Shown: positions 8,524 to 54,636, counted from the first letter of the stretch. The stretch: DNA of 64,000 bases from an uncultured virus (IMG/VR IMGVR_UViG_3300035188_001343) (IMGVR_UViG_3300035188_001343), one strand, 5' to 3'. The notes: generated from the letters alone by a model not told the origin. Numbers and translations: made by a program.

Positions 8524-8529
8524 ATCTGT

Positions 8530-9435: not shown

Positions 9436-9447
9436 GAAAAACATATT

Positions 9448-15643: not shown

Positions 15644-15937
15644 ATGGCTAAGAAAGACACAACCACATCTACATCTAAAAGTGCCACACCTAAAAAAAAT
15701 GATTTATTCACCAAAATGAGAAAAAACATTCTTAAAAAGAATGAAGATGCAATGTTAGATTTAACGGAACCTACTGTTTGGGCATCATCTGGAAATTATG
15801 TATTAAATCATATTTTGAGTGGTAGATTTCATAGAGGTTATCCTTCTGGAAGAATTGTACAAATTTTTGGTGATTCTGGGTGTTTATTGCCACATGAAAA
15901 AATAAAAGTGTATGAATTCAAATCAAATATTGTATGA
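15644..15937 (+). CDS. uvsX: UvsX/RecA recombinase, fragment 1 plus 18-aa IntN
   Basis: SGNYVLNHILSG...GYPSGRIVQIFGDSG is the RecA N-terminus up to the first half of Walker A; then CLLPHEKIKV (block A, 15881-15934). Confidence 0.9.
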   Translation: MAKKDTTTSTSKSATPKKNDLFTKMRKNILKKNEDAMLDLTEPTVWASSGNYVLNHILSGRFHRGYPSGRIVQIFGDSGCLLPHEKIKVYEFKSNIV

Positions 15938-16000
15938 AATACTTGTTAAATTATTATAAAACTAACAATCAAAAAATAAAAAACTTTATTGGAGAACAAA

Positions 16001-17323
16001 ATGATTGAAAACAATGTTAGAGAATTAACTGATAAAGAAAAATTACTGGAATTAAAAGAATGGTATTCCTCTGATGAATTATCAAAATCCCTTGATGTTA
16101 CTGAAGAAATGCTTGGTAATTTTTTAAATGATAAAAGTTCTTTTACATTAACAAATTCTGAGAAATTGAACGATTTTTTTAATAACCATGTTCATGAAAA
16201 TTCAAAATTTGAAATGATTAAAAATGTTTATGGTTTGTGGGAAACTGATGAAAAACAATTTATGGTTGATACTCCTGATGGGTTTCAATTTGTTAGTGAA
16301 TTTATTCATAAAGATTCAAGAAGTTGCTTTGACTTAAGAACCGATAATTTTCATATTGAATGTTCGGGTGACCATTTGATTGAAACTGATAAAGGTTGGG
16401 TGAAAACTGAAGATATTGTAGTTGGTTCAAAAGTGTTAACCCGTGTTGGTTTTGAGGAAGTTAAATCAAATGCACAACTTAGTGATAGTGATGTTTACGA
16501 TATGACTGTTGAACATGATAATCATCGATATTGGGGTGGTGCCGGTATTTCATCACATAATTCTGGTAAATCTTTTCTTATGGCTAAAGCGATTGTTGAG
16601 GCTCAAAAAGAAGGTTATATGGTGGCAGTATTAGATTCGGAACAAGCGGTTTCACAGGATTATTTGAAAAAAATTGGGGTTGATTTAGACCCATCAATGT
16701 TAATGACTGTGCAGGTACAAACAGTTGAACAAACTCAAGATATGCTTCTAGAAGTTTTGGAAGGTGTTAAGGAAGAACAAGAAGCTTTAGGAAATACCAA
16801 AGAACTAAAATTATTACTGATTGTTGATTCCATTGGTATGCTTTCATCTGGAAAAGCACTAGCAAATGCTGAAGCTGGACATCACGCGGCTGATATGGGT
16901 ACTAAAGCAAAAGCATTAACCAATATGTTCAACCAAATTGTACAAAAAGTTGGTATTACTGAAACTGTTTGTTTAGTAACTAATCATGGAGCATTAGAAG
17001 TTGGAGTTATGTTCCCACAACTCAAACCAAAAGGTGGACAATGTTTAGTAGCAGGTACAAAAGTACAAACTGATAAAGGTTATAAAAATATTGAAGAAAT
17101 CCAAGTTGGTGATATGGTGAGAACACACTTGAACCAAATTAAACCTGTTGAAAAATTATTTAGTTTCGATAATCTTGATATTCTTAATTTTGAATTAGAA
17201 ACAGGACAAAACATTAAAATGTCGAAGGATCATAAAATGTTAGTTTTGCGAAATGGTGAAAAATTGTGGTTGGAAGCTCAATTTATAACTACTTATGATT
17301 CATTGTTAGCACTTGATGTTTAA
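16001..17323 (+). CDS. uvsX: UvsX/RecA recombinase, fragment 2 (IntC1-extein-IntN2)
   Basis: GGAG RBS before ATG 16001. IntC1 16001-16561 ends SSHN|SGKS. Extein has LDSEQA, Walker B LIVDSIG, MGTKAKAL, VTNH, PKGGQ. IntN2 17042-17320 starts CLVAGTKV and has block B SKDH. Confidence 0.92.
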   Translation: MIENNVRELTDKEKLLELKEWYSSDELSKSLDVTEEMLGNFLNDKSSFTLTNSEKLNDFFNNHVHENSKFEMIKNVYGLWETDEKQFMVDTPDGFQFVSEFIHKDSRSCFDLRTDNFHIECSGDHLIETDKGWVKTEDIVVGSKVLTRVGFEEVKSNAQLSDSDVYDMTVEHDNHRYWGGAGISSHNSGKSFLMAKAIVEAQKEGYMVAVLDSEQAVSQDYLKKIGVDLDPSMLMTVQVQTVEQTQDMLLEVLEGVKEEQEALGNTKELKLLLIVDSIGMLSSGKALANAEAGHHAADMGTKAKALTNMFNQIVQKVGITETVCLVTNHGALEVGVMFPQLKPKGGQCLVAGTKVQTDKGYKNIEEIQVGDMVRTHLNQIKPVEKLFSFDNLDILNFELETGQNIKMSKDHKMLVLRNGEKLWLEAQFITTYDSLLALDV

Positions 17324-18412: not shown

Positions 18413-19081
18413 ATGAACTCAAATGAGTTTTTAGTCGATTCAAATTATAAACCAGTTAAGATTAAATCTATTACCCCTGTGGCAATAGAAAAAACTTATG
18501 ATTTTCAAGTTGCTGACGATCATAGTTTTTTATTAGAAAATAATATAATTTCAAGTAATTGTATGGAATTTGTACCATCAATTTCTTTGCGTGTAACTAA
18601 AGGTAAGATTAAACCCACTGATTTGGCAGAATTAGAATATTTGTATGATGGTGGAATACCAAAACATTTGGGTGCTTTAGGGATTGTATCGAGAATTGAA
18701 TTGTATAAATCCCGATTTACCCGACCTTTTAGAAAGGTACAATTGATGATTCCATACGATTTTGGATTACCTGAATATGCGGGATTATTTGATTATCTCA
18801 AAGATAATGGTATAATTATTGAAAATGGTAGAAAAGGTTATTATAATTGTACTGAGGTACAATTTGAAAAAGATTTTACTAGAAAAGATTTTATTAAAGG
18901 TGGTTGGGCTGATTTAATTATGGAACATTTATTAGCTGAGGAAACCAAAGGTAGAATTTATGATTTTATTATGAAATCTAGTGATGATGATGCCCGAGAA
19001 AAAGAACAAGGATTAGATTCAATTGATGACTCTTACATTGAAGATGATGATATGGATGAATCGGAATTTAATGTTGAATAA
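18413..19081 (+). CDS. uvsX: UvsX/RecA recombinase, fragment 3 (IntC2 plus C-terminal extein)
   Basis: AAGGAG RBS; IntC2 18413-18559 VKIKSI...TYDFQVADDHSFLLENNIISSN|C; extein CMEFVPSISLRV, KSRFTRPF, acidic tail. Confidence 0.9.
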   Translation: MNSNEFLVDSNYKPVKIKSITPVAIEKTYDFQVADDHSFLLENNIISSNCMEFVPSISLRVTKGKIKPTDLAELEYLYDGGIPKHLGALGIVSRIELYKSRFTRPFRKVQLMIPYDFGLPEYAGLFDYLKDNGIIIENGRKGYYNCTEVQFEKDFTRKDFIKGGWADLIMEHLLAEETKGRIYDFIMKSSDDDAREKEQGLDSIDDSYIEDDDMDESEFNVE

Positions 19082-21419: not shown

Positions 21420-23159
21420 ATGGCTAACTATATTGATTTTGCTTATTTAGGTAAAACCGCAGACCCAACAGGCATTAGAGTGTGGGAACAAAATTATGAA
21501 ACAGGTAAAATTGATGAGAAAGATTATGACATAAAAGATTATTTGTATTTTTACATTGATGCTACTGACGAGAACAAAATTGAAAAAAATTTAATTTCTC
21601 AAAGGGGAACAAAAGTTAAAAAAGTGGTTGCAGATAACTTTAAAGTTCTTAGAAATGGTGAATCTGCGAAAATGTTTCATAGTTTAAATCTTAATACTTA
21701 TGAGTCTGATATTGAACCCTTACATAAGGTAATGTTGGATAATTATGGAAAAGATCATCAAAAAGCCACTAATTGGAATTTAGCTTTATATGATATTGAA
21801 ACGGATGTTCGTATGGAGGATTCTTTTATGGGTATGCGAGCAAATGCAGATCGAGAGATAAACGCTATTTCTGTGTGGTATTCGAAACCAAATAAATTTT
21901 ATAATTTTACCGTTGTACCACCTATGCTGCGAGATGAATGGGATTTTGATACTATTGAAACTCGTGGTAATTTTGAGATTATCTATTTTGATAATGAAGA
22001 AGAAATGCTGGAAACATTTTTCACAGTTACAAAAAAACATGAAACTATGGCATTAGGTGCGTGGAATGGGGATTTTTTCGATACCAAGTATATTTTTGAT
22101 AGATGCAAAAATATTTGGAAAGAAAAAGGTGCTGCAGAACGAATGGGGCGGTTTACAAAAGTTAAAAAAACTAAAATCATGTTGGGTGAAAAAGAAGAAA
22201 TTTTGGTTAGACCAATTGGTATGATTTGGTACGATTGTATGGAGGCTTATAAGAAAAATGGTCCAGAATTAGAATCGTTTGCTCTAAATGCTGTAGTTGA
22301 ACATGAAAATTTGGGAAGTAAGTTAGATTTTGAAGGGTCGTTTGAAACTTTATATCACGGAAGTAGAAAAGATAGAGATAGATTTTTAGAATTAACACCA
22401 AAGAAAAAAAGAAAAAATTTGATTAAAAAATCTAATGAGATTGGAAACTCGGTTATTTCTGATTTGGGGTTATATAGCGAATGTAAAGATATGTTGAAGA
22501 TGGATACAAGCATCGAAGAATATGAATTGGAAACTCGAATTCAAATAAGTATTACTGATAGATTGGAAGAGCTTCTCAAAATGAATGAAACCAAAGAAGA
22601 TTTAGGTGATATGTTTGAGGATTTTGAACGATTTGTAGTGTATAAAAAGTTAACAGATACTTATAGACTTTTTGTTGATTATTCTAATCAGGATAGTCAA
22701 CTTTTACATGATTTAGAAATGAAGTTGGAAAAATTTAAAACTCTTATGATGTTGGCACAGTATAATGTATCATCGTTTTATGATGTATTTTCTACACTCA
22801 AACAGGTTGAACAGGGTATTACTAATTTTGCTCATTTATATAATAATAAAGTTGTTATTGATCGAGAGTATGATAAGAAAAAACAGATTTATAATAAATT
22901 TGTTGATAAAGATTTGTTACAAATCAGAATCGACAATGATACTCGTATACAACCAAATGATAATCGGAAGATAAGAGAAATAAAAACTCTTTTGGAGCAA
23001 AAAAAAATACCTGGAGCCAACGTGCTTCAACCATACGTAGGATTGATTTCTTACAATGAGGCGGAAACACCACAGTTAGCAAGAGAATTCAAATCATTAA
23101 AAAATGAATTGCGAGAAATAGATGAACAGTTAAAACAATTTGAAATGGATGAAAATTAG
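21420..23159 (+). CDS. family B DNA polymerase, N-terminal and exonuclease fragment with C-terminal coiled-coil tail
   Basis: ExoI YDIETD, ExoII WNGDFFD, ExoIII YSNQD, PGANVLQP just before motif A; ends in a heptad tail; motifs A, B and C absent. Confidence 0.9.
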   Translation: MANYIDFAYLGKTADPTGIRVWEQNYETGKIDEKDYDIKDYLYFYIDATDENKIEKNLISQRGTKVKKVVADNFKVLRNGESAKMFHSLNLNTYESDIEPLHKVMLDNYGKDHQKATNWNLALYDIETDVRMEDSFMGMRANADREINAISVWYSKPNKFYNFTVVPPMLRDEWDFDTIETRGNFEIIYFDNEEEMLETFFTVTKKHETMALGAWNGDFFDTKYIFDRCKNIWKEKGAAERMGRFTKVKKTKIMLGEKEEILVRPIGMIWYDCMEAYKKNGPELESFALNAVVEHENLGSKLDFEGSFETLYHGSRKDRDRFLELTPKKKRKNLIKKSNEIGNSVISDLGLYSECKDMLKMDTSIEEYELETRIQISITDRLEELLKMNETKEDLGDMFEDFERFVVYKKLTDTYRLFVDYSNQDSQLLHDLEMKLEKFKTLMMLAQYNVSSFYDVFSTLKQVEQGITNFAHLYNNKVVIDREYDKKKQIYNKFVDKDLLQIRIDNDTRIQPNDNRKIREIKTLLEQKKIPGANVLQPYVGLISYNEAETPQLAREFKSLKNELREIDEQLKQFEMDEN

Positions 23160-24391
23160 ATTCTCTCTTTAATTAGATTCACACATTTTTCTACCATCTG
23201 TTCTATATTTTCTTTTGTTTCATAATCCCAAATTTCGATTACAGTGAACCCTTTTTTTTCAGCAGATGCTAATTTTAATCTGTCCAATTCAAATTTTTCA
23301 TCTGCTGATTTTCCTGTCCAAGGACATCTCCATCGTTCCCATTGCTCAGTTGTTAATTTTTCTTTTGATGGGTGTACATGACTTCCATTATATTCAAAAA
23401 TTAATTTTAGTGGTAAAATAGTATAATCGAATGAATGCAGTTTTGTACCTTCTTCAATTTTGTATTCACAAGAGTTTTCAACGCCGTAAAAAATATCAGA
23501 AAAATCAATACCGTGTGCAAGTGAAAAATCAGTTAAATGTTTAAAAAATGCCAATGATTCTTTGGAAGCAATATAACCTGCATTGCTGTTTTTGTATTTT
23601 TTCCATCTGGTCAACCCTTCTTCATATCCATGAACTCTGATGAAATTCTCTTTAGTATTTGCAGATCGTTTACAAAATAGGTTGTATTTCTTTTCACCTA
23701 ATTCTGTACCATACCGGGAAATGAAATTCTCCTTACTTAATTTAGATTTTTCTTTAAATTCTACCCATTTTTGTTTTCCCAATTCTTCTCCATGCCGAAG
23801 TTTAAAATTTTCTTCGGATAGCATGCACTTTTTTTTCCATGATTTGTATTTCTTTTCACCCAATTCAACACCATGACGTTTTTGCATTTTTTCTAAAGTT
23901 TGTCCACCTCTTGTAGAAATTGCCTTGGTAAACAATTTCAACCCTTCATCATTTCCATATTTCTTAGTGAATTTTTCTAAGGTAAGCACTTTTTTTGAAT
24001 TCATTTCAGTGTATCTTCTAGATCCTTCTTCCAATCCATATTTTTCTACTTGTCCCTCTAACGTGTTACCAATACCTTTTTTTCTGTTATTATCAAGATA
24101 TTTTTTTAAACCTATCTCGTCACCATACTTTAACCTAAAATAATGTTCAGTGTTAGATTTAGTCTTTAGAAATTTTTTAAATCGGACTACTAAATTTTCT
24201 TCTAGGGTAGTGGTAGATATTAGCATACAATGAAACGAATATCTTTGTTCTTGTGTTAAATTTCCTCCCAATACTAAGTTGACGTCTTTTAATCTTTCAA
24301 TCCCAATGTTTTCAAAAGTAATCCCATTCTCCTTAAAAAACTTATTGGTGAACGCTCTTTTCGTTTTTAAATTTAATTCTGAATATTTCAT
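23156..24391 (-). CDS. free-standing Vsr-like (homing) endonuclease
   Basis: KYGxExG repeats; FDY...FEYNGSHVH...GFTVIEIWD; paralogue of 5274-6437; abuts the polymerase break point. Confidence 0.8.
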   Translation of the reverse strand: MKYSELNLKTKRAFTNKFFKENGITFENIGIERLKDVNLVLGGNLTQEQRYSFHCMLISTTTLEENLVVRFKKFLKTKSNTEHYFRLKYGDEIGLKKYLDNNRKKGIGNTLEGQVEKYGLEEGSRRYTEMNSKKVLTLEKFTKKYGNDEGLKLFTKAISTRGGQTLEKMQKRHGVELGEKKYKSWKKKCMLSEENFKLRHGEELGKQKWVEFKEKSKLSKENFISRYGTELGEKKYNLFCKRSANTKENFIRVHGYEEGLTRWKKYKNSNAGYIASKESLAFFKHLTDFSLAHGIDFSDIFYGVENSCEYKIEEGTKLHSFDYTILPLKLIFEYNGSHVHPSKEKLTTEQWERWRCPWTGKSADEKFELDRLKLASAEKKGFTVIEIWDYETKENIEQMVEKCVNLIKERI

Positions 24392-24461
24392 GTTAACCGA
24401 TTATTATTGTATAATTTAAATATATTATTATACAAATTTATGTATTTGAAGGTGTTTTCTT

Positions 24462-25439
24462 ATGAAAATGAAAAAAAGTGTTGATATAATTATAGCAGAA
24501 ATGTTTGATAATTACGATATTAACGCAGATGATGATGCAAAAGATGATTTTTGGCATGAATTAACCGATGAAGAACAATATATGGTTAATAGTCGAGTAC
24601 AATTAGAAAATGGGAATCCCAAATATGACTATCTTTCATGTTCAGAACCAGGTAGATTCGATAATAATGAAGTTGTTACCGATTATGAAACTTTATATGA
24701 GGTTGACTATAAATGGTGGGAATTTCAGAAAAAATGTAGATGGGATGGCATTGAGGAAATGAAAGGTCATATGAATGCAAATGATACTGAATATTATTCC
24801 CCACAAAAAGTTTCGGAAGTTATTAACGCATTTAACGATGATTATGATGGAGGTTATACTATTTACCTTACTGGCGATTGGTATCGGTTGATTGAAAATG
24901 GTAAACTTTTATATTCACAATTTATTTCCGCCAGATGGTATTTGTATTATGAACTTGAAAATTTATTGGATACTTTGGGTGATGAAAATATTCCTTATTC
25001 TTACAAAGATAGTGATGATAAATTGATGTTTATCAATGAACCCGATGCTGCTAAGAAATATGATGCCCAAGGAAGGGAATATGAGTTGGAAAGTTTTAAT
25101 TGCGAAATTATGAAATATCAACATGATGAAATGATTGATAAAATTGATGTGGTTGTTGATAAGTATAAGTGTAAATTTAGTGGAAAAGTATTTAGAACTC
25201 AACGTGATGAGACTATTGTCAATGATTGTGATGATTTTGTTGATTTTATTTTTTATGATGAACAGTCGTTAAAAAATGTTTCTCCAAAGAATTTTTTAAA
25301 AACATTTAAACAAAATCAGGAAGAATTTTCCGAATTTGCATTGTTATTTTCTGAATTGGTGAAAATAGTTACTGATGATTTTTATAGAATATATGATGCA
25401 AATAAACTTAAATACAGTGACACCATTAGTTATTCTTAA
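24462..25439 (+). CDS. hypothetical acidic protein
   Basis: 325-aa ORF; no motif recognised. Confidence 0.7.
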   Translation: MKMKKSVDIIIAEMFDNYDINADDDAKDDFWHELTDEEQYMVNSRVQLENGNPKYDYLSCSEPGRFDNNEVVTDYETLYEVDYKWWEFQKKCRWDGIEEMKGHMNANDTEYYSPQKVSEVINAFNDDYDGGYTIYLTGDWYRLIENGKLLYSQFISARWYLYYELENLLDTLGDENIPYSYKDSDDKLMFINEPDAAKKYDAQGREYELESFNCEIMKYQHDEMIDKIDVVVDKYKCKFSGKVFRTQRDETIVNDCDDFVDFIFYDEQSLKNVSPKNFLKTFKQNQEEFSEFALLFSELVKIVTDDFYRIYDANKLKYSDTISYS

Positions 25440-25466
25440 AATTACTACCTTTGTTGGGGTTATATT

Positions 25467-26177
25467 ATGCTTAGTGAATTTTGTGAATTGATTGCAGCAG
25501 AAAATGTCGATGAATTAAAATTTAAAATGATCGAAATTGGAGCACATTATAATATCATAGTAACATTTGAAGATTTTCGTGATGAATACTACAATTGGTC
25601 TACATACTCAAACATTATTGTTGTTGGGCATTATGATAACTTAGATATGATGATTGCATCATTTTTTCATGAATTAGGTCACCACACATCTAAATTTGAT
25701 AAAAATGGATATAAAAAATTGAAATTTCACCAAGAATTAGATGCATGGAATGCAGGATTAATTATTGGGCATGCTAATGGTTATTATATAAAACCTGATA
25801 CTTATCGAAAATGTATGGATAAAATGTTGTATTCTTATATCCCCTATGACATTAGAGAATATTCGGGATTTTATCAATCACCAGCAGCAAATTATTTTTA
25901 TGGTGAAAATAATATAAAATTTTGGACTTATTATAATAATATTTTTTCTTTTAACATTAACGATAATAATTTAATTACATCAATATTTGAAAACCGAAAG
26001 TTTATAACTGAAAATAAAAATATGTTTGAAATTGATAATCATCTAAAGCAAAATATTATGCGAGCAGATAAAAAGTTATTTACTATTTACACACAGTACA
26101 ATGTCCCAGAATATCATGAGAATAAAAATTTTATGATACTTAGAGATACTGTAGGGTTATTATCTTTTAATGTTTAA
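25467..26177 (+). CDS. HExxH zincin-like protein
   Basis: FFHELGH ... QELDAW. Confidence 0.6.
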   Translation: MLSEFCELIAAENVDELKFKMIEIGAHYNIIVTFEDFRDEYYNWSTYSNIIVVGHYDNLDMMIASFFHELGHHTSKFDKNGYKKLKFHQELDAWNAGLIIGHANGYYIKPDTYRKCMDKMLYSYIPYDIREYSGFYQSPAANYFYGENNIKFWTYYNNIFSFNINDNNLITSIFENRKFITENKNMFEIDNHLKQNIMRADKKLFTIYTQYNVPEYHENKNFMILRDTVGLLSFNV

Positions 26178-26215
26178 ACAATACTATTACTTTCACATAT
26201 TTTAATGAGGAAAAA

Positions 26216-26692
26216 ATGAATACTTTCAAATTAGAATTGAATATCGTTTATCCAAATTCAGATGAATTTAATGAACACACATTAAATGCCAGAATTTTTG
26301 TTGATGGTGAAGAACTTTCTACTGAATTTGTTTCACTGTATGATTTGTTTAACAGTTTAAAAAAACCAGGTGAACATTTTATTTATAATTGTTCGTGCTG
26401 TGTGCCGGGTTGTGCTAGAATTGCTAATGGTGTTATGGTTAAACATAAATTGTATAAAATTCGATGGAAAACAAGGTTGCCGGCATCATATACAGGATTC
26501 AAAAATTACCATGTTTATTTAAAAAAGGTAAAGAATAGAACATTTGAATTTGATAAACATCAAATGATAACAGCAATTAAAGATGAATGCTATAAATTTT
26601 TAGAAATCATTCCACCTGATATTATCTTTGATGAATTTGACGATAATTCTACATTCATCACTGAAAAATTTGAAACATTGAAAAGTATCTGA
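26216..26692 (+). CDS. hypothetical protein with CSCCxxGC motif
   Basis: GAGG RBS; IYNCSCCVPGC. Confidence 0.6.
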   Translation: MNTFKLELNIVYPNSDEFNEHTLNARIFVDGEELSTEFVSLYDLFNSLKKPGEHFIYNCSCCVPGCARIANGVMVKHKLYKIRWKTRLPASYTGFKNYHVYLKKVKNRTFEFDKHQMITAIKDECYKFLEIIPPDIIFDEFDDNSTFITEKFETLKSI

Positions 26693-26891
26693 GTAAATTA
26701 TAAATATGAAAAAAGATCCAAATACATACTGTATTAACTATGAAGAAAATATTGGTTGGGAACTTTTACATGATTTGGTTGCTCATCCATTAATGGCACT
26801 AACCTTATATAAATCGAAATTAGTGATTTCCTTTCACGATTTTACATCTTCTAAAGCCTGGATTAGAAAAAACTAACACGAGTAAAAAAAT

Positions 26892-27806
26892 ATGACTGAA
26901 TTATTAATTAAATTGCGTGAGTTAAGAAATTTTGATCCTGACAATTATATTGATTTGAAAACGAAACAAATCAACGAATTTTTCAAAATTAACAACTTGG
27001 ACTCTGTAATCTTAGGAATATCTGGTGGTATTGATTCGGCAACCACATTAGCGTTGTTAATGCGTTCAGCTAACATAGTTGGTTCACCAATAAAAAAAGT
27101 AGTTGCTATTTCTATGCCTATTTTTTGTAGTGGGACGACTGGTCAAGTTGATGCAATAAACATTGCACTCGATGATATTGAAAAATATAAATCTGATAAA
27201 AAATTTAAAATACAAGTTGATGATTTGTCAAAAGCACATTCTGCTTTTTTAGAACAGCGAAAAGGCGAATCTACACCATTTTCATCTGGGCAATTGGCAT
27301 CTATTGTTAGAACACCACATTTGTATTTTAACGCTGCTATTTTACAAACTGAAGGATACAAATCTCTTGTTTGTGGAACTACAAATCGAGATGAAAGTTA
27401 TCTTATTGGTTTTTATGGAAAAGCATCCGATGCGATGGTTGATTTACAACCTATATTTGATATTCACAAAAGTGAGGTATATCAAATTGCAAAAAAAATG
27501 AATGTTTCCAATGAAATAGTGGAACGTCAACCAATGGGTGATGTTTTTGATGGAAAAACGGATATTGAGATGATTGGAGCATCATATGATTCTATCGAAT
27601 TGGCTGCACATATTAATGAATATCATTTGTTTATCAATGATAATGTGTATCTTAGTGAACTAAGAAACACATTTACTGAGTCCGCAGAATATAAAAATAT
27701 TTTTAAATTACACCATATTAATAGTCATAAATATAAAGTGGGATTACCATTTCATATTTTAAGTGTTTTTAAACAACATGATCGATGGGAAGATTTTAAT
27801 CAATGA
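26892..27806 (+). CDS. nadE: NH3-dependent NAD+ synthetase
   Basis: PP-loop LGISGGIDS, GTTNRDE, GFYGKASD, PIFDIHKSEVYQIAK, TDIEMIGASY, HK. Confidence 0.9.
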   Translation: MTELLIKLRELRNFDPDNYIDLKTKQINEFFKINNLDSVILGISGGIDSATTLALLMRSANIVGSPIKKVVAISMPIFCSGTTGQVDAINIALDDIEKYKSDKKFKIQVDDLSKAHSAFLEQRKGESTPFSSGQLASIVRTPHLYFNAAILQTEGYKSLVCGTTNRDESYLIGFYGKASDAMVDLQPIFDIHKSEVYQIAKKMNVSNEIVERQPMGDVFDGKTDIEMIGASYDSIELAAHINEYHLFINDNVYLSELRNTFTESAEYKNIFKLHHINSHKYKVGLPFHILSVFKQHDRWEDFNQ

Positions 27807-28573
27807 ATAAAATTCCAAACCACATTACTCCTACGTCTAATTGTATTCCTGGATTTTGGGAAGTACCAAAAACTGAATTGAAACTTAAATCTCACAATGT
27901 TGTTAAAACAGAAATAATGACACACGTTAAATCGTTAGAAGGAATACTTGATGATGACTCATGTGATGCTATCATTTCTTTATTTAATTCATCAAAAATA
28001 GAATCTGCTGTATCGGTTTCTGGTTTAATGAACGATAGTTATGGTGTGGGTTCAATTAGAACTACTGGTTGGTCATTAGATATTGCAAATGAATTAACAA
28101 AATTAATTATTCCACATTTAGAAATAAAAATGTGTGATGATTTAACCCCAACAGATTGGTGGCAAAATGATGGTGGTAAACTTTGGAAACCTCATTCTGT
28201 GTCACCACTTTTAAGATTTATGCGTTATAATAAAGATAGTGAGCATTATGCACATTATGATACAGGTTATATATACGATTCAAATTTTAGAACATTAAAA
28301 TCGATGGTTATTTATTTGACGAATAATAAAATCGGTGCTACTAGATTCATCGAGGATTATCAGCAGAATATTCCCATACAGTTTAGACATCATCATGATT
28401 GGCATTCAAGAGTAGATAAATCTGAAATAATTGCTTCATGCTATCCAGAAAAAGGTAAAGTGCTGTTATTCGATCATAGGTTATGTCATGATGTTGAAAA
28501 GTATGATGGCATGGAATCATCTGGAAGAATTATTATACGTGGTGATATAATTTATGAACGATTGGAAAATTGA
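27803..28573 (+). CDS. 2-oxoglutarate/Fe(II)-dependent oxygenase
   Basis: RFMRY, HYD, VIYL, GATRF, LLFDH.LCHD, RIIIRGD. Confidence 0.85.
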   Translation: MNKIPNHITPTSNCIPGFWEVPKTELKLKSHNVVKTEIMTHVKSLEGILDDDSCDAIISLFNSSKIESAVSVSGLMNDSYGVGSIRTTGWSLDIANELTKLIIPHLEIKMCDDLTPTDWWQNDGGKLWKPHSVSPLLRFMRYNKDSEHYAHYDTGYIYDSNFRTLKSMVIYLTNNKIGATRFIEDYQQNIPIQFRHHHDWHSRVDKSEIIASCYPEKGKVLLFDHRLCHDVEKYDGMESSGRIIIRGDIIYERLEN

Positions 28574-29957
28574 TACAGATCCATATTATAGTGAGTTACA
28601 TAAAACTTTTGGTAAACAATATATTTTTGATGCTGGATTTTTTCATGATTGTTATGAAAAACCATTAGACCTTCATGAAACTTTAAAAATATTATGTACA
28701 CCAATCAAACATATAAAAACTCCCAAAACTAAAAAACACTGCATTTTACTTACGAGTGGTGCAATGGATCCAATACATCTTGGTCATATTGACATGATGC
28801 TTTCAGCAAAAATTAGATTAGAGCAAGATGGATATGAGGTATTGGGTGGTTATATTTGTCCGGCACATGATTCTTACGTATCATCAAAAAATGATGATGC
28901 TTACCCAATTCATATTAGAGTAAGATTAATTTCCGAGTTTATAGAGGCGTATAAACAAACGAATTGGTTATCGGTTGATCCCTGGAGTGGTATTTTTACT
29001 AAAGGTGATATAAATTTTACATTGATGTTAGAACGATTAAAACTATACATTGCAAAATATTTAAATCTTGAAACTGAAATAATTTATGTATGTGGTGAGG
29101 ATCGAGCTACATTTTCTGAAACTTTTCGTTTAAAAGGTAAATGTGTTGTTGTGGGTAGAGGGGAAAATACAAGCAATTTTAATGAAACTGATTATGCTTT
29201 ATTTGCGAGCTGTGACAACAACAGAACATCATCTAAAATAAGTAAAATTCAATCATTAAAAAAACGAGATGTAATAATTCGAGATGATAAAACTTTCAGT
29301 GTTGCACAATTCAATAATGTGTTTAGTAAATATTTCAACAGTATAACGTTTAAAGATTTTGATGAACAAAAAAACCGATTTTTTCAATTAGATCAAGAAA
29401 AAATTATTAGTATAGATTCCATGTTAAAAAGTAAATACTATGTAACCATATCAAGATTATATGATTTTTTTGGTTGTACTCAACATGGATATTTGGTTAA
29501 ATCTATGAATTTACCAGTAAACGTGGATAAGGCATATACTTTAGTAGACGATGATTGTGTTTCTGGAAGAACTATGGATACCGTCAAAGTATTGTTATCA
29601 CATCACAAAATCTGTGTTAACGACACTTTTATTTTTACGGAAGAAAAAAATAATATCGAAATTTTAGATATGCGTGATTTTGTTTTATTTGGAGAAAATA
29701 GTGGTTTAGTTGCAGGTGATGATTTAAGATTACCATATATTTATCCATTTGTTGATCCCTTTACGCGTTGTTCTGTAATCGATCCTTTAAATTTTTCTTT
29801 AGATATATGGTTGATTAACAAAGCCTTTATATCTAACATTGGAATAAATAAAATACCACAGTTTAATTTATTTTCAATGCTTGGATTTGATAGTCAAATA
29901 ACAACTCATGAAATTTGCGATTATTACATTCGACTGTTGAGAGAATTAAAAGCGTGA
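28554..29957 (+). CDS. NadD/NMNAT-like HxGH nucleotidyltransferase fused to a type I phosphoribosyltransferase-like domain
   Basis: SGAMDPIHLGH, GYICPAHDSYV, YVCGED; C-terminal LVDDDCVSGRT PRPP-binding loop. Confidence 0.8.
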   Translation: MNDWKIDTDPYYSELHKTFGKQYIFDAGFFHDCYEKPLDLHETLKILCTPIKHIKTPKTKKHCILLTSGAMDPIHLGHIDMMLSAKIRLEQDGYEVLGGYICPAHDSYVSSKNDDAYPIHIRVRLISEFIEAYKQTNWLSVDPWSGIFTKGDINFTLMLERLKLYIAKYLNLETEIIYVCGEDRATFSETFRLKGKCVVVGRGENTSNFNETDYALFASCDNNRTSSKISKIQSLKKRDVIIRDDKTFSVAQFNNVFSKYFNSITFKDFDEQKNRFFQLDQEKIISIDSMLKSKYYVTISRLYDFFGCTQHGYLVKSMNLPVNVDKAYTLVDDDCVSGRTMDTVKVLLSHHKICVNDTFIFTEEKNNIEILDMRDFVLFGENSGLVAGDDLRLPYIYPFVDPFTRCSVIDPLNFSLDIWLINKAFISNIGINKIPQFNLFSMLGFDSQITTHEICDYYIRLLRELKA

Positions 29958-29985
29958 TGATAATACAATTAATTAAGGGTGAAAA

Positions 29986-30189
29986 ATGTACGATTACAGA
30001 AACATGAATGATGCTAGTGATTTATACTATGTATTCGAAAATGGTTTTAATTCACGGGAAACATATATAGTTGAAAATTTAACAATTCAACAAAGTAAAT
30101 TAGTTTGTGAGGAATTAAATAAATTGAGAATATTAACGGTTCAATACACGGATTTGCTTGACAAAATATACAGTAACATACGAAAGTAA
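29986..30189 (+). CDS. hypothetical protein
   Basis: Short ORF with AAGGG RBS. Confidence 0.5.
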   Translation: MYDYRNMNDASDLYYVFENGFNSRETYIVENLTIQQSKLVCEELNKLRILTVQYTDLLDKIYSNIRK

Positions 30190-30225
30190 AGTAACAAATT
30201 ATTTTTTTAAAACCACGGAGTTAAA

Positions 30226-30486
30226 ATGAAAAATTCATTAAAAATGTTTCTAGACCCATACAAAAAGTTCATATTTTTCATGCTTATATTTTTAGGCGTG
30301 GTTGCGATATGTTATTACAACCTGATTTTTGATGATAACCAACGTGAAAAAAACAAAAAATACCTTTCTTCCTTATCCCAATCTACACAGTTGGAAATAT
30401 TGAAAATTTGCTATGAACAAAAAGATGTTGGATGTGTGAAAACAATCGATAATTTTAAAAAAAATGAGCAAATTCCTAACAGTTGA
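30226..30486 (+). CDS. small membrane protein
   Basis: One hydrophobic segment; C-terminal L.ICxxxxxxxC pattern resembles 42270-42503. Confidence 0.55.
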   Translation: MKNSLKMFLDPYKKFIFFMLIFLGVVAICYYNLIFDDNQREKNKKYLSSLSQSTQLEILKICYEQKDVGCVKTIDNFKKNEQIPNS

Positions 30487-30506
30487 TAGAATGTGGTTAT
30501 AATGAT

Positions 30507-31124
30507 TTAATTTTTGAAGATATAAGAATTTGCATCATTGGGTAATTGTGTGAATCCATATTTGAGAAAAAAATTACTCTCATTACTTGCATATATACCA
30601 CTTTCATCATAGTAGGATAGTGTGTCAAACTTTCTAACTGCTTTATCAACTAAAGATTTGAAAATATTATATCTGTCGTTGCTTCGTGGTAAACAATAAT
30701 CGACGATTTCTCCACTGGGTTTTAAAATTAATTTTCCCCAAATTCCTGATCTTCGGTAAAAAACATCGATTGTTTTTTCGGTAGAACAATTACCGAATAC
30801 TGATTCTTGTATTGGTGTAGTGGGTGTAACAGTGGTGTTATCAATTTTTTCATCGGTAGGTTTGTTATATTCAATGTAAAATTTTGATGTATTTTTGATT
30901 TCATCAATTATTCCAGCATCACTTAGAAAGAAATTTTTAAAACTTTCTTTCATTTCATATTCTCTAAATTGAAATGTATTTAAAATGATAAACATACCAT
31001 TTTCATCAAATTGAATAGTCGGTGTATCATCAAAAATAACTTTCAATTCATCTTCAACCATACTTATTTTTACAAAATTGTTTGTGAAGATTCTAACTTC
31101 CATTATTAAATCATGTATTTTCAT
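30507..31124 (-). CDS. hypothetical late protein
   Basis: MKIHDLIME leader; TATAAATA at 31155-31162 on the minus strand. Confidence 0.65.
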   Translation of the reverse strand: MKIHDLIMEVRIFTNNFVKISMVEDELKVIFDDTPTIQFDENGMFIILNTFQFREYEMKESFKNFFLSDAGIIDEIKNTSKFYIEYNKPTDEKIDNTTVTPTTPIQESVFGNCSTEKTIDVFYRRSGIWGKLILKPSGEIVDYCLPRSNDRYNIFKSLVDKAVRKFDTLSYYDESGIYASNESNFFLKYGFTQLPNDANSYIFKN

Positions 31125-31282
31125 TATTTTTTCCTAAGTTGAAAAAGACTATATTATTTATAGTATAATTTTATTAATTTAAAAAATTCTGTGAGTAATT
31201 AACGGTTGAGTTTAACCTATTCCACTGTACAAAATTGTGAACTACTCATGAAGAATAACGGTTAATTTTTGGTGAACACAGT

Positions 31283-31567
31283 ATGAATTTTCAAAATAAA
31301 TTTAAAGATTATAAAATTGAATGGCAACCCCATTTCGCCAATGGGTATGTTAATGTTGATACGTGTAATACGTGTAAATACCAAATAAAAATTTGTAAGC
31401 ATCCTTGGAATGAACGTGAATTTTCAAAAGGTGGTATTTCTGAAATAATTTCGTATGGATGTTCGGTACAGTTTGATTCTACAACTGATAAAAACCCACG
31501 AATAATAATGATGGATCATGATACCAGTGTTTCAAGTTGCGAATTGTATCATTTAAGGAAAGATTAA
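31283..31567 (+). CDS. Cys-rich hypothetical protein
   Basis: CNTCKY...C...C...CELY. Confidence 0.55.
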   Translation: MNFQNKFKDYKIEWQPHFANGYVNVDTCNTCKYQIKICKHPWNEREFSKGGISEIISYGCSVQFDSTTDKNPRIIMMDHDTSVSSCELYHLRKD

Positions 31568-31589
31568 TATTTTTTTCATAGGAGTAAAA

Positions 31590-32297
31590 ATGCTTAGTAA
31601 AGAAGAACTTTTAGAAAAACGAAAACAAATAAAGAAACGTATTTGGGATATTGAACAAATCCTAAAAAACAAATCACTGGTATCCGTAGTCGATTTTGCT
31701 TCAATGTATCCATCAATTCTTAGATTGTTAAATGCTGCTATTGAATCGTTGGTTGGTTTTCTTGATGATGATCCAATCGCATACAGAAAAGTAGGATTAT
31801 CAAAAACTTTTTTGGATTCCAAAGAAAAATCTAAGGAGCTAGTAAAAACTACTTTAACTGATAGTAGACACGTTAAATTTGTAGGTAAAAATGATGAAAA
31901 AGTTTCATTGCGACTAGATTTATATGCTGGAAAATATGATGAATCGACTATTGATGATATAACTGAAACACCATTTGAACGGTATTTTTTAGCATCTATG
32001 GGTGTATTTGATCCCGATCAAACGGAAATAAAATTTCAAGGTAAAATTTATACAGTTGCACAACTAAATAAATATTTTAAAGAAATGAATTACAGTGTGA
32101 GTGGTAGCGGTAGCGTTTTTGAAAAAACTGGTAAGGATGGTAAACAGGGTCTTATTCCAAGTTATTTAGAATATATGTTTGTTGAGAGAAAAATACAAAA
32201 AAAAGCCGCTTTCGGACATTTCAAAAATAAAAATACCCTACAACGTTTTAGAAAAGCAGCAATTGCAGATGGATTATATACCGAGGTAAAAAAATGA
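31590..32297 (+). CDS. family B DNA polymerase, second fragment (motif A to first fingers helix) with N-terminal coiled coil
   Basis: AGGAG RBS; SVVDFASMYPSI is motif A; SGSGSVF and GLIPSYLEYMFVERKIQKK; stops before motif B. Confidence 0.9.
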   Translation: MLSKEELLEKRKQIKKRIWDIEQILKNKSLVSVVDFASMYPSILRLLNAAIESLVGFLDDDPIAYRKVGLSKTFLDSKEKSKELVKTTLTDSRHVKFVGKNDEKVSLRLDLYAGKYDESTIDDITETPFERYFLASMGVFDPDQTEIKFQGKIYTVAQLNKYFKEMNYSVSGSGSVFEKTGKDGKQGLIPSYLEYMFVERKIQKKAAFGHFKNKNTLQRFRKAAIADGLYTEVKK

Positions 32298-35234: not shown

Positions 35235-36257
35235 ATGAATGTAAATGAAATTTTTGAAAAATATAACACTGATGAATCATTGACCTATGAACAGTTTGTA
35301 ACACCTAGTTTTTCTGGTGGTCATAATAAATGGATAAATCGGTATCCAAAAACAAATGTGGTTTTTAAAATTTTAGAACGTGCATGTTTGAAAAATGATA
35401 TTGATTATAATTGGATAACAGATTTTTTTGGTGGTAATGTATCCACTTATGTTTTAGGTATAAGTCAGCAAGATGCAAATAAATTAGGAAAACAAGTATC
35501 AATTAGTTGGGATGAATTCACTGAAAAATACTGTGACGATGATGCTTCTGAAACAACGATTACTGCTGATGAAATAAACACATACCGAAAACCAAAATTG
35601 GTGGATTATGTAACTGTAAAAAATTTAAAAGCCCAAAAAATACCAATGTCAACTTCAATATATGAATTTATTAATAAACCTTTAACCGATGGTCAAATAT
35701 CAATTTCTGATTTACAAATGACTGTTAGGGATTTTTTGATGAATTTTGCGAGTTTTCGGTCTATATCAAAAACACAATATAACATTTTTACATCTGTCAA
35801 TGGTAAAGGTGGTATTTTTGGTAGAAATGGGGATTTGAAGGCAATTGAACCTGTAGAAGTAGGAGAATTTTTATTCCAGGTAAGTATCGATGAGTTGAAC
35901 TATAAACGTGATGTAGATGAAATTCAAAAATTGTGGGAGTGGAGAACAGGTCGCAATGAATTGCGTGGAAAATACGAGGAACATTTTGGGTACGATGTAA
36001 AGCATATGAGTCATTTGTTTAGATTACTATTAGGTGCTATTAATATTCTCGAAACGGGTGAGTATCACCCTAGATTAAAAGGTGAAAACCTCAAATTTGT
36101 TAGAAATATTTTACGTGGTCAATATACTTACAATTATTTAATTGAATATACCTCGGTGTTGGAAGAAAAGATGGAAGAGGCTTATAAAACCTCTACTTTA
36201 CCAGAAACAGCTAATCATAAGAAAGCCAACAAACTACTTTTGGAATTATCATACTAA
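35235..36257 (+). CDS. RlaP/NrdC.11-like nucleotidyltransferase, C-terminal fragment
   Basis: GHNKWIN; WEWRTGRNELRGKYEEHFGYDVKHMSHLFRLL; IRxG.Y-like ILRGQY; STLPE. Confidence 0.8.
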   Translation: MNVNEIFEKYNTDESLTYEQFVTPSFSGGHNKWINRYPKTNVVFKILERACLKNDIDYNWITDFFGGNVSTYVLGISQQDANKLGKQVSISWDEFTEKYCDDDASETTITADEINTYRKPKLVDYVTVKNLKAQKIPMSTSIYEFINKPLTDGQISISDLQMTVRDFLMNFASFRSISKTQYNIFTSVNGKGGIFGRNGDLKAIEPVEVGEFLFQVSIDELNYKRDVDEIQKLWEWRTGRNELRGKYEEHFGYDVKHMSHLFRLLLGAINILETGEYHPRLKGENLKFVRNILRGQYTYNYLIEYTSVLEEKMEEAYKTSTLPETANHKKANKLLLELSY

Positions 36258-36336
36258 GTTGTTGATAAATATTTGTGATTATTTTGAAATTAAAACAACC
36301 AATTGGGGGTGTCACCCCATATTTTTAGAGAGATTT

Positions 36337-36837
36337 ATGAAAGTTAATGAGTTATTAGAAAAAGAGACAGTAAAAGGATTGTATGCTGCGGTAAAATTTT
36401 CCAAGGATACAATTGATAGAATTTTAAAGTATTGTGGGGATAAGGACATTCCAAATATTTTAAACCCTGAAGATTTCCATAGTACATTATGTTATTCTCG
36501 CAAACTTGTTCCTGATTTTAAACCAGTAGATGAATTATTTGAAGAGGGTAAACCAAAAAAATTTGAAATTTGGGAAAGTCCACCAAATGCGTTTAAAGAG
36601 GAAAAAACCTTTTGTTTGGTATTAAAATATTCATCATCTTATATGGAAAATAGATTTAAAGAAATTATGGATATGGGTGCAACTTATGATTATGATGAGT
36701 ATAAACCCCATTTAACCATTAGTTATGATGTTGGGGAAGGGTTTGATGTTAGTAAATTGGTTGATATTGATGCTATCGCACCTTTAGATATTATTGGTGA
36801 GTATTCGGAAGAGTTGGATTTGGATAAAAACTATTAA
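36337..36837 (+). CDS. acb1: Acb1 / T4 gp57B-like 2H phosphoesterase (anti-CBASS nuclease family)
   Basis: GLYAAVKFS, FHSTLCYSR and GATYDYDEYKPHLTISYD (two HxT motifs); ATG 36337 after GAGAG; TAAATA at 36266. Confidence 0.85.
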   Translation: MKVNELLEKETVKGLYAAVKFSKDTIDRILKYCGDKDIPNILNPEDFHSTLCYSRKLVPDFKPVDELFEEGKPKKFEIWESPPNAFKEEKTFCLVLKYSSSYMENRFKEIMDMGATYDYDEYKPHLTISYDVGEGFDVSKLVDIDAIAPLDIIGEYSEELDLDKNY

Positions 36838-37230: not shown

Positions 37231-38289
37231 TTATTTAATGATAAGTTTAAAATTATAACCCAATAATTTAACTGCGTCAAATTTTGCATTGTTTCTATTT
37301 AAACAAACATTTAAAGTGTATTTCGATTTTACCTCAATAATTATGTTTTCATTTGGAATGAAAATATCTGGGTAGTATCTACTAGTTATACCTTCAAATT
37401 CATAATATATAACCGGCATGTTATTTGCATCGGTGACAATATCTTCAAACTGATAACCTGAATTTTCTAAGTCGTTTAAAACCATAGGTTCATATCCTTG
37501 AACAATGGAAACTTGACCAGTTTTCCAACTATATTCCTTTTTACGAAAACAGTTTTTTCTGTTCTTTTCAAAAACGGTGGTTGATTTCATTGGATGTATA
37601 ACACCATATTTTTTAAGGTTGGTTTCCTGTGTCTTATTTAATAATTGTTGGCATTGTGATGGATGATCAACACCATATATTTCATTCATTTTTTTAGTAA
37701 GGTGCGATGAACCAAAAATGAAATCACAGCCGTACTTTGTTTGATTGGTAGCTTTAATCTTGTTTCGAATTTTCAAATTTTGGATTGGTCTTCTCACACC
37801 ATATTTCTCTAAATTTGAATTTTCCACTTTTTCTTTAATTGACGCACATTGTGATGGGTTCTCAAAACCAAACACTGTCATTGAGGTATTTTTAAATTTG
37901 TTTTGTATGTTTTCGTTTTGCATAGGAAATTCAACACCATATTTTTCAAGATTTGATTTCTTAATTTTTTCCTTGACTGAATTCAGTTTTGAAACATTGT
38001 CAACACCATACTTAACGATATTATTCACTTTTCTGGTATGTTCTCGACAACAACCACTGGTAAGAATTGTTTGCTTTGTGAAAATTCGTAAGTTTTCACA
38101 TCCTGATAATCCACATCTTGGCACAGAACTGAAACCATGTTTAAGTAAGTAGAAAATCTCATGTATAGTATAATCCACAAAATTATATTGTTTAGCCTTT
38201 AAAGATAGGTAATCTTTCAATTCTTTGGAGAATTGTGCTGGTTTTGGTTTAATTTTTTCAAATTCTATTTTTAACATTTTTTCCATCAT
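37231..38289 (-). CDS. free-standing PD-(D/E)xK endonuclease with KYGVxxxxQ repeats
   Basis: Cys-rich N-terminus, KYGVDNVSK and KYGVEFPMQ repeats, QGYEP, YYPDIFIPNENIIIEVKS. Confidence 0.8.
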   Translation of the reverse strand: MMEKMLKIEFEKIKPKPAQFSKELKDYLSLKAKQYNFVDYTIHEIFYLLKHGFSSVPRCGLSGCENLRIFTKQTILTSGCCREHTRKVNNIVKYGVDNVSKLNSVKEKIKKSNLEKYGVEFPMQNENIQNKFKNTSMTVFGFENPSQCASIKEKVENSNLEKYGVRRPIQNLKIRNKIKATNQTKYGCDFIFGSSHLTKKMNEIYGVDHPSQCQQLLNKTQETNLKKYGVIHPMKSTTVFEKNRKNCFRKKEYSWKTGQVSIVQGYEPMVLNDLENSGYQFEDIVTDANNMPVIYYEFEGITSRYYPDIFIPNENIIIEVKSKYTLNVCLNRNNAKFDAVKLLGYNFKLIIK

Positions 38290-53733: not shown

Positions 53734-54636
53734 ATGAACATTGATAATGAATTGACCAACTTTATAGCAACCAACAATTTAAACCCAGATAACTTTGAAA
53801 ACACTATTAAAAAAATGCAATATGTTACTTTTTTTAATGATTTCACAATCCAATGTTTGGGTGAACCAGTTAATATGTTTACTACGAAAAAGAACAGATT
53901 TTCGGCTTCTATAATATACTTACCAAACGATTTTCCAAATAAATTGATACCTGAATTTGACCAAGTGACTATATCGAACTTTTATCTTGGTGTTATTTGT
54001 AATGGGACATTGAAATTTAACTTTGATAATTACAACGGATTTTTAAAAGAAATGTTCAATTATCGGATTCAACTCAATAAAGAACTCGCAGTTGAAACCA
54101 ACTTCATAGAAAAGCAACTTTTAAATACTAAAATTTCTACTATCAAACTTTATTTAAACCTTGTTTACGGTATGTTAAACAACTATAATTCAGTAGTCAC
54201 TGTAACACATGAATATGGTCGAGATTATGTAGTGGAAACATCAAAAACCGTTTTATTGAGGTGTGTTTCGTTTCTGCTCAATAAATCAACTCCAATATAT
54301 TATATTGATACTGACGTAATATTTATTCCGTCAAATAAACGGGAAATATTTAATGAGTTAGTAGAGACATTTCACAATACATGTTCTGATATGATTGATA
54401 CAGATATATCATTCCCGTACATCGATGAAAATGAAAAAAGTATGACCGGATTTATATTTGGTCGAAAAAAAATGATTATGGCAAAAAAAGAACACATGTA
54501 TGTTAAAAATGTGGATACTATTGATGATGATGTGATTTTAAATGTTAACAAAAATTTTTTTGGGGCGAAGTATAAAGACATTTTTCCGGAATATGTCGTT
54601 TGGGATTATAAGTATAATGCTAGATTAGATTCATAA
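53734..54636 (+). CDS. stand-alone degenerate family B polymerase palm/fingers protein
   Basis: LKEMFNYR, motif B KLYLNLVYG, motif C YIDTDVIF; no clear motif A. Confidence 0.7.
   Translation: MNIDNELTNFIATNNLNPDNFENTIKKMQYVTFFNDFTIQCLGEPVNMFTTKKNRFSASIIYLPNDFPNKLIPEFDQVTISNFYLGVICNGTLKFNFDNYNGFLKEMFNYRIQLNKELAVETNFIEKQLLNTKISTIKLYLNLVYGMLNNYNSVVTVTHEYGRDYVVETSKTVLLRCVSFLLNKSTPIYYIDTDVIFIPSNKREIFNELVETFHNTCSDMIDTDISFPYIDENEKSMTGFIFGRKKMIMAKKEHMYVKNVDTIDDDVILNVNKNFFGAKYKDIFPEYVVWDYKYNARLDS

Follow-up and report, generated by a model that had tools for sequence, protein, structure and literature searches.

The 64,000-nt stretch of DNA analysed here (the window; G000:C1:225534-289533 of the 306,333-bp uncultured-virus record IMGVR_UViG_3300035188_001343, which is ~85% complete) comes from a freshwater jumbo phage of 306 kb, whose T4/RB69-type family B DNA polymerase (PolB) is made from at least three separately translated genes. 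The first break in the enzyme (break 1) lies at the tip of the palm β-hairpin just before motif A, the unusual site to which an earlier reading of this sequence (the original prediction) had drawn attention, and each cut end bears a tail with the heptad pattern of a helix. Our comparisons indicate that break 1 and its tails are fixed across a clade of freshwater jumbo phages. We think it rather probable, from the conserved pattern of the two tails, that an antiparallel two-helix clasp would hold the separately translated PolB pieces together without splicing. The parts of the polymerase in the window are as follows.

21420..23159, plus strand: PolB fragment 1 (579 aa); N-terminal domain, 3'-5' exonuclease, first palm strand and C-tail
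23049..23156, plus strand: coding region of the fragment-1 C-tail (residues 544-579); acidic linker, heptad helix at ~551-575, acidic end
31580..31584, plus strand: Shine-Dalgarno sequence AGGAG, 5 nt ahead of the fragment-2 ATG
31590..31673, plus strand: coding region of the fragment-2 N-tail (residues 1-28)
31590..32297, plus strand: PolB fragment 2 (235 aa); N-tail 1-28, motif A strand and helix, palm insertion, finger helix N
53734..54636, plus strand: probable PolB fragment 3 (300 aa); finger helices, motif B at 138-146, motif C at 190-195, KK motif at ~245, most of the thumb missing

Break 1 and its two tails

Fragment 1 contains all of the exonuclease motifs (ExoI, DIETD at 125-129; ExoII, NGDFFD at 216; ExoIII, YSNQD at 421), the catalytic residues of which are invariant across 41 sequences of the fragment-1 family; it matches Pfam DNA_pol_B_exo1 (PF03104, E 1.3e-15) and positions 37-377 of phrog_262. 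In a fold test, the AlphaFold2 (AF2) model of the relative P0037 (mean predicted local distance difference test, pLDDT, of 82) found RB69 gp43 chains as its best Foldseek matches (E 7e-15, N-terminal and exonuclease domains). The helical insertion of about 100 aa that had been noticed before ExoIII is borne out: the ExoII-to-ExoIII spacing is 205 aa in fragment 1 vs. 110 aa in the XacN1 polymerase, and the extra region is predicted by AF2 to be all helix in P0037. The first palm strand, IPGANVLQPYVGLI (residues 530-543), is followed by 36 residues, SYNEAETPQLAREFKSLKNELREIDEQLKQFEMDEN, and then by the stop codon.

Fragment 2 begins 8,430 bp beyond that stop codon, in agreement with the open reading frames (ORFs), sequences and 8.4-kb separation first described. 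It opens with a 28-aa tail, MLSKEELLEKRKQIKKRIWDIEQILKNK, which leads into SLVSVVDFASMYPS; motif A reads VVDFASMYPS, with D35, S38 and Y40 invariant in 45 sequences, and R200, K201 and K204 of finger helix N are invariant as well. Fragment 2 matches Pfam DNA_pol_B (E 2.6e-4) and phrog_262 positions 399-492, and its family profile aligns with residues 401-436 and 450-500 of T4 gp43. It covers positions 398-493 of the 502 in phrog_2062 and stops after finger helix N, that is, in the fingers, as the original prediction had it.

The GAxVxxP strand and motif A are contiguous in unsplit relatives, running in the XacN1 polymerase from G386 to D404 (GAAVLKPRVGMHERVAALDVNSLYPS) and lying likewise side by side, with no insertion between palm strand and motif A, in P0122 and P0124; the closeness of the two elements in family B, on which the original prediction relied, is thus a property of these relatives too. 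Because both strands are contiguous in unsplit relatives, the 36 + 28 tail residues amount to an insertion at the tip of the β-hairpin.

Both tails recur widely. A search with fragment 1 (length range 318-1014 aa) yielded 48 proteins, none longer than 630 aa, and all 44 of those that reach the palm strand end 31-39 aa beyond it, with the tail consensus S(Y/F)DEExTPxLAREFKxLKAELxEIDxQLAxFEEEE. Fragment 2 retrieved 64 proteins, 46 of which start with a tail of 29-43 aa ahead of motif A, the rest being N-terminally cut calls; the consensus here is KEELLEKRxxIKKxMWDIExxLKDK, then FVSSVDFASMYPS. No fused form was present among the 48 fragment-1 matches or among the 12 proteins of an all-length representative search with fragment 2, and fragment 3 was the only ORF with motifs B and C in the 306-kb record; the intact polymerase gene that might have undone the proposal did not appear in these searches. 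Judged on these alignments, a break and two tails recurring in 44 and 46 relatives are far beyond chance. The tails are conserved nearly as well as the enzyme body (majority fraction of 0.65 vs. 0.76 for fragment 1, and of 0.62 vs. 0.72 for fragment 2). Searches of viral contigs with single proteins returned no relative for fragment 1 and only a chance-level 16-residue match for fragment 2 (L003); with alignments as queries, the sole relative was the genome G001.

The sequences of the tails point to conserved heptad helices of mostly opposite charge. In the fragment-1 tail, the register positions 553, 557, 560, 564, 567, 571 and 574 are occupied by LIVMFW residues in 85-100% of 41 sequences; the hydrophobic moment lies above that of shuffled sequences (z = 3.1); and helix 604-629 of the P0037 AF2 model matches the tail helix. 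In the fragment-2 tail, positions 7, 14, 18, 21 and 25 are LIVMFW in 98-100% of 45 sequences, and position 11 is K/R in 93%. The helices are equal in length, with a heptad spacing of 4-3-4-3-4-3 in one tail and its mirror image in the other; since the spacings are mirrored, an antiparallel register pairs every layer. The charge counts of the original prediction are exact (9 acidic and 5 basic residues in its 31-aa string, 5 acidic and 9 basic in its 28-aa string), and the relatives follow suit: a net negative charge is found on 42 of 44 C-tails, and a net positive one on 39 of 46 N-tails. The most divergent genome-linked pair (P0044/P0111, locus L020) has tails that are both longer, at 39 + 41 aa. 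The most divergent relatives overall, P0047 (C-tail charge +1) and P0114 (N-tail charge -10), lie on unlinked contigs; if they belonged to one phage, they would represent a compensatory charge swap.

We propose the following mechanism. Break 1 lies at the tip of the palm β-hairpin that leads into motif A, with a helix of ~25 residues on each cut end; the acidic heptad helix of fragment 1 would pack antiparallel on the basic helix of fragment 2, in the register layers L553-L25, F557-I21, L560-I18, L564-I14, I567-R11 and L571-L7; and the clasp would set strand VGLI beside LVSVVD, rebuilding the palm sheet. In this way the exonuclease fragment 1 and the catalytic fragment 2 could become one enzyme with no splicing of RNA or protein. 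Break 2 would be of the known fingertip type, with fragment 3 bringing in motifs B and C. The breaks go together with free-standing endonuclease-like genes, whose invasion is their most likely origin, and the interval between fragments 1 and 2 may later have become a hot spot for cargo.

Several observations count against a clasp of this kind. For the fragment-2 tail of the window sequence, the hydrophobic moment does not exceed that of shuffled versions (z = 0.38, p = 0.32); K4 and R11, two of the seven residues in its register, are basic; and the positive charge of the N-tails is mild (mean +2.2), seven of 46 being zero or negative, with P0114 the extreme. In addition, the tails of Aeh1 NrdA, a fractured phage enzyme to which we return below, are dispensable for its heterodimer and essential for the dimerization of heterodimers (PMC3045599); because those tails are unneeded for binding of the two pieces, the tails here could likewise serve another contact. 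It is possible, although we regard it as unlikely, that the tails bind something else (the polymerase body, fragment 3, the clamp or helicase, or a second copy of the polymerase), and that fragments 1 and 2 are held together mainly by the ordinary exonuclease-palm interface and the shared β-sheet. The broad hydrophobic face of the fragment-2 tail, which has L8 and W19 outside the main register, and its low hydrophobic moment would suit packing on more than one surface. The equal length and mirrored heptad spacing of the helices argue for a mutual partnership instead, as do the joint lengthening of both tails in L020 and a fused analogue in the exonuclease domain that is modelled as a self-contained hairpin (see below).

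Splicing offers another route to an intact enzyme: the pieces might be joined by trans-splicing intron halves or by a degenerate split intein. Some relatives do carry a group I intron four codons into motif A (DFAS|MYPS; L004 10104-10429, Rfam E 6e-8; L014 9925-11334, E 1e-8), and true split inteins occur in the UvsX gene of this window. Between 21000 and 33000, however, there is no Rfam match at E <= 1, and none at the gathering score across the window; no Hint or intein domain was detected by Pfam in fragments 1 or 2, whereas the same search found the Hint domains of the UvsX ORFs, which served as a positive control. The tails, at 36 + 28 aa, have no conserved nucleophile, the residue after the fragment-2 tail being T, S, A or V. 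Each piece has independent translation signals, with a conserved stop codon after the fragment-1 tail and AGGAG plus ATG for fragment 2. Contigs from independent lake metagenomes (four other runs) bridge both gene ends with 0 differences, and no joint linking ~23159 with ~31590 was present in them. The original prediction had likewise seen no intein and had named RNA splicing as a way in which it could fail; we consider a spliced product highly improbable. With no Hint domain at the PolB breaks, assembly must be non-covalent.

The introns of the relatives, absent from the window, mark the region as a target of mobile elements. In L014, the tail and motif-A exon are present as a diverged copy upstream of an intact, intron-less fragment 2; the intron core and a 350-aa endonuclease-like gene come after this copy, and the arrangement looks like the relic of a homing or recombination event.

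The probable third piece and the missing thumb

The original prediction placed at least a third piece elsewhere, and the ORF at 53734-54636 is probably that piece. Motif B (KLYLNLVYG) and motif C (YIDTDV) are present only here; in a motif scan this was the sole ORF with both motifs in the 306-kb record. Its homologue in G001 has 36% identity, conserved synteny and both motifs; its profile weakly matches residues 473-633 of Pyrococcus abyssi PolB (E 5e-4); and its ESM Atlas model superimposes on PolB clusters with template modelling scores of 0.66-0.72. All three pieces keep invariant catalytic residues. The N-terminal ~100 aa of fragment 3 align to the PolB palm in the ESM Atlas model, without the motif-A aspartate. 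Fragment 3 was also compared with L032 1462-2313, and evolves much faster than fragments 1 and 2.

Other results speak against this assignment. The Pfam DNA_pol_B match (positions 123-241, E 6.8e-4) falls under the cut-off; a word-indexed protein search returned no relatives; the identity to G001 is 36% for fragment 3 vs. 58% for fragment 2, which indicates faster evolution; and the AF2 model, built on a two-sequence alignment, is unusable (pLDDT 35). Moreover, judged by its alignment to P. abyssi PolB, fragment 3 seems to include both finger helices and would then duplicate helix N of fragment 2. The thumb was not found either: phrog_262 positions 495-856 are absent from both G000 and G001, and tblastn with the XacN1 polymerase gave nothing past residue 506. 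Because fragment 3 stops ~105 aa after motif C (105 aa vs. 264 aa in the XacN1 polymerase), the thumb is unaccounted for; the part after the KKxY motif may have diverged, be encoded by another gene or lie in unsequenced DNA. For a three-piece enzyme in which no thumb can be recognised, one must ask how the DNA is gripped.

The missing thumb, together with a record that is ~85% complete, could also be taken to mean that the split PolB is a decaying relic and that another polymerase replicates the genome. A candidate exists outside the window, at G000:C1:23737-23961 (minus strand), where a 175-aa ORF resembles the Pol III alpha family (E 1e-5; 22.6 bits vs. a cut-off of 23.9); a minimal split Pol III alpha has been reported beside PolB in group 2.2 jumbo phages (PMC7824862). 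Decay is hard to reconcile with exonuclease motifs and motifs A, B and C that are invariant across relatives, and neither PolA nor a protein-primed PolB was found; the absence of phrog_262 positions 495-856 is common to G000 and G001, whose spans would be complementary if the genomes are collinear. We consider a relic very unlikely.

Endonuclease-like genes and a second site

A gene that the original prediction had overlooked ends on the stop codon of fragment 1, and cargo fills the remainder of the interval up to fragment 2.

23156..24391, minus strand: 411-aa putative homing endonuclease, convergent with fragment 1, stop codons overlapping (TTAG)
24462..31567, unstranded interval: cargo between fragments 1 and 2; hypothetical genes plus NAD synthase, 2-oxoglutarate (2OG)-Fe(II) oxygenase-like and cytidylyltransferase-like genes
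26892-27806: NAD synthase, cargo
27803-28573: 2OG-Fe(II) oxygenase-like gene, cargo
28554-29957: cytidylyltransferase-like gene, cargo

The assignment of the 411-aa protein is based on distant resemblances: it matches phrog_22677, has a weak nuclease-fold match (PDB 3hrl, E 0.26) and is one of a family with several copies in the window, of which a paralogue at 5274-6437 (E 3e-16) itself gives weak restriction-endonuclease- or endonuclease-like matches; Pfam returned nothing meaningful for the 411-aa protein, even at E <= 5. The gene abuts the fragment-1 stop codon in seven of the 13 informative loci, its counterparts in L009, L010, L011, L014, L018 and L023 being placed and oriented alike, with 46-59% identity. 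It is missing from the other six (L012, L013, L016, L017, L020 and L022), L020 being the most basal relative. This absence is a point against invasion by this gene as the cause of the break, since the gene may have arrived after the split.

The overlap of the two stop codons, and the fact that unsplit polymerases have no counterpart of the tails, could suggest that the tails are scars from the insertion of an endonuclease cassette, scars that supply the stop codon, the start codon and leader peptides and are tolerated without any role in assembly. Neutral scars would not be expected to hold heptads that are 85-100% hydrophobic, or to be conserved nearly as well as the enzyme body down to 47% identity; nor would they persist unchanged in the six loci that lack the endonuclease gene. 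We accordingly consider scars quite unlikely, and the clasp remains our preferred explanation of the tails.

The distance between fragments 1 and 2 ranges from 565 bp in L020 through 7.9 kb in L014 and 8.4 kb in the window to 9.7 kb in L017, and the cargo varies in content, including a TnpB gene in L014. A DUF7487 gene of L014 (12176-13333) abuts the fragment-2 stop codon on the opposite strand. In L017 (11737-16413, minus strand), the cargo includes genes of 329 aa and 1,227 aa that by sequence look response regulator- and sensor-like.

A second site, in the exonuclease domain just past NGPELESFALNAVAEEE..K.DF, exists in three allele states. There is no insertion in 39 of 41 full-length relatives, the window included; P0037 and P0043 carry a fused insertion of ~50 aa; and P0046, P0048 and P0049 are 335-aa proteins that end inside the insertion (...DYEE[DG]), for which P0051 is the matching C-piece. 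In the AF2 model of P0037, the insertion forms helix 307-329, loop 330-334 (DDFDD) and helix 335-356, both helices having a pLDDT >=90, and the split relatives end exactly at the loop of this modelled fused hairpin. In L025, the halves of the insertion are separated by a 349-aa endonuclease-like gene, which is on the opposite strand and overlaps the stop codon by 16 nt; this is the geometry seen at break 1. The same family thus provides a natural analogue, in which some relatives have a fused helical hairpin and others one that is cut at its loop. At the palm site itself, the idea of the original prediction that a pre-existing helical hairpin was severed found no such backing: neither a fused nor a tail-less palm-site allele was found.

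A quick maximum-likelihood tree (IQ-TREE, N-terminal 300 residues; P0047, in which the second-site pattern was unmatched, was left out) scatters the five carriers among un-inserted alleles, and its starred branches require two or more changes for each second-site state. The carriers have the common flank NFEELYHGRR, whereas un-inserted alleles read NFETLYHG(S/T)RK. This scatter and flank signature would fit a mobile insertion; repeated loss is also possible. The exonuclease-site and palm-site tails are no more alike in Smith-Waterman comparison than shuffled sequences (p 0.19-0.47), which gives no sign of homology between the two clasps, and the 411-aa gene shows no similarity to the 349-aa gene of L025 (E 0.13).

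Based on the scattered occurrence of the exonuclease-site insertion on the quick tree and the common flank of its carriers, we tentatively suggest, while regarding it as doubtful, that the unit of helix, endonuclease gene and helix could be a mobile element that carries its own heterodimerizing clasp and fractures essential genes at surface hairpins non-lethally. Loss of the endonuclease gene would then leave either a gene that stays split for good, as seen at the palm site, or a fused hairpin insertion, as at the exonuclease site of P0037 and P0043. If this were true, selfish DNA would give core replication enzymes both new boundaries between subunits and new insertion domains. The second site, with its un-inserted, fused and severed alleles, offers a natural series on the origin of the breaks and on whether the helices travel with the endonuclease.

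Known split proteins and the genome setting

The original prediction presented a non-covalent alternative to split inteins as something new; the principle has already been published, and what sets the present case apart is the position of the break, one strand before motif A, a site not described for PolB. In phage Aeh1 (NrdA-a/mobE/NrdA-b), tails at the cut ends restore function without splicing, as shown experimentally by Crona et al. (2011, PMC3045599), who predicted such tails in other fractured genes. The polymerase shares with Aeh1 NrdA an essential phage enzyme cut between adjacent β-strands of its active-site domain into separately translated pieces, with no splicing; and an oppositely charged, unique tail on each cut end that is absent from unsplit homologues. 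A free-standing endonuclease gene lies at the break in Aeh1, and a putative one at break 1 in seven of the 13 informative loci. Unlike Aeh1 NrdA, the enzyme is PolB, not ribonucleotide reductase, and its tails, which match each other in length, have a clear heptad helix pattern and a predicted role, with the charges the other way round: acidic on the C-tail and basic on the N-tail. The endonuclease-like gene also differs in type and is encoded on the opposite strand, and an entire clade shares the break, with as much as 9.7 kb of cargo between the pieces.

Another precedent is the PolB of phage PhiKZ (DNAP-N/DNAP-C), for which a solved structure shows a split inside a helical palm insertion and a complex that is stable and active (Basu et al. 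2026 preprint, PMC13648687). In both cases a jumbo-phage PolB is split into genes within a helical insertion of the palm, segments of both subunits folding together in PhiKZ. The PhiKZ split, however, falls after motif A (D562 is on DNAP-N) in a domain of ~350 aa, whereas break 1 falls before motif A, in a two-helix unit of ~64 aa. The present enzyme also belongs to a T4/RB69-like lineage and has further breaks, and its motif A is on the downstream fragment, which sets it apart from a split of the PhiKZ type.

The break between 43A and 43B lies at the fingertip. These are the two parts of gene 43 in T4-like Aeromonas phages, with a putative homing endonuclease between them in one instance (Petrov and Karam, cited in PMC2677866). 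As in 43A/43B, a T4-type PolB is here broken into pieces, and break 2 ends where the 502-position profile phrog_2062 ends; the description of 43A/43B as cited there does not include a break before motif A, helical tails or at least three pieces. The same paper described "fractured genes" in phage-like metagenomic DNA, in which split inteins have a free-standing endonuclease gene between the halves, and introduced the Vsr-like endonucleases (Dassa et al. 2009, PMC2677866). The order of N-piece, endonuclease gene and C-piece is common to those genes and to break 1, and the UvsX of the window is of that type; unlike them, the PolB breaks have no Hint domain. Our full-text literature search, with most subscription journals outside its scope, returned no account of heptad tails on a PolB that is split before motif A.

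If the clasp forms as proposed, tail-mediated reassembly of a fractured gene, for which Aeh1 NrdA is the sole biochemically proven case, would also apply to a replicative DNA polymerase. As two equal heptad helices, the tails are unusually legible, and together they could serve as a natural, orthogonal split-protein tag.

The window has a G+C content of ~29% and no tRNA genes were found in it; near-identical DNA is present in lake and freshwater metagenomes from several studies (2016-2024). Its gene content is that of a T4-like jumbo phage, with UvsX, RNase H, Acb1, an actin-like protein, many endonuclease-like genes and metabolic cargo. Cargo genes at 7060-10443, 26892-29957, 36142-36837, 41048-42022 and 43224-43700 comprise an ABC transporter set (permease, ATPase and binding protein), NAD synthase with nucleotidyltransferase- and phosphoribosyltransferase-like genes, the Acb1 nuclease directed against CBASS (cyclic-oligonucleotide-based antiphage signalling system) and an Alp7A/ParM-like actin.

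Free-standing endonuclease-like genes are numerous in the window (5274-6437, plus strand; 37231-38289, 39916-41010, and 46540-47094 with 47103-47585, minus strand): one is the paralogue of the 411-aa gene and three are DUF7487 genes, one of these as two adjacent ORFs. The UvsX/RecA-like recombinase consists of three pieces on the plus strand (15644-15937, 15989-17323 and 18413-19081) that are joined by two split inteins. Piece 0 ends in ...IFGDSG followed by CLLPHEK..., a very short N-intein; piece 1 starts with a C-intein of ~190 aa ending in SHN|SGKS, which completes the Walker A motif, and itself ends in ...KGGQ|CLVAGTKV...; and piece 2 starts with a C-intein ending in SSN|C. A recombinase doubly fractured and rejoined by split inteins thus appears to share its genome with a polymerase that would use non-covalent tails.

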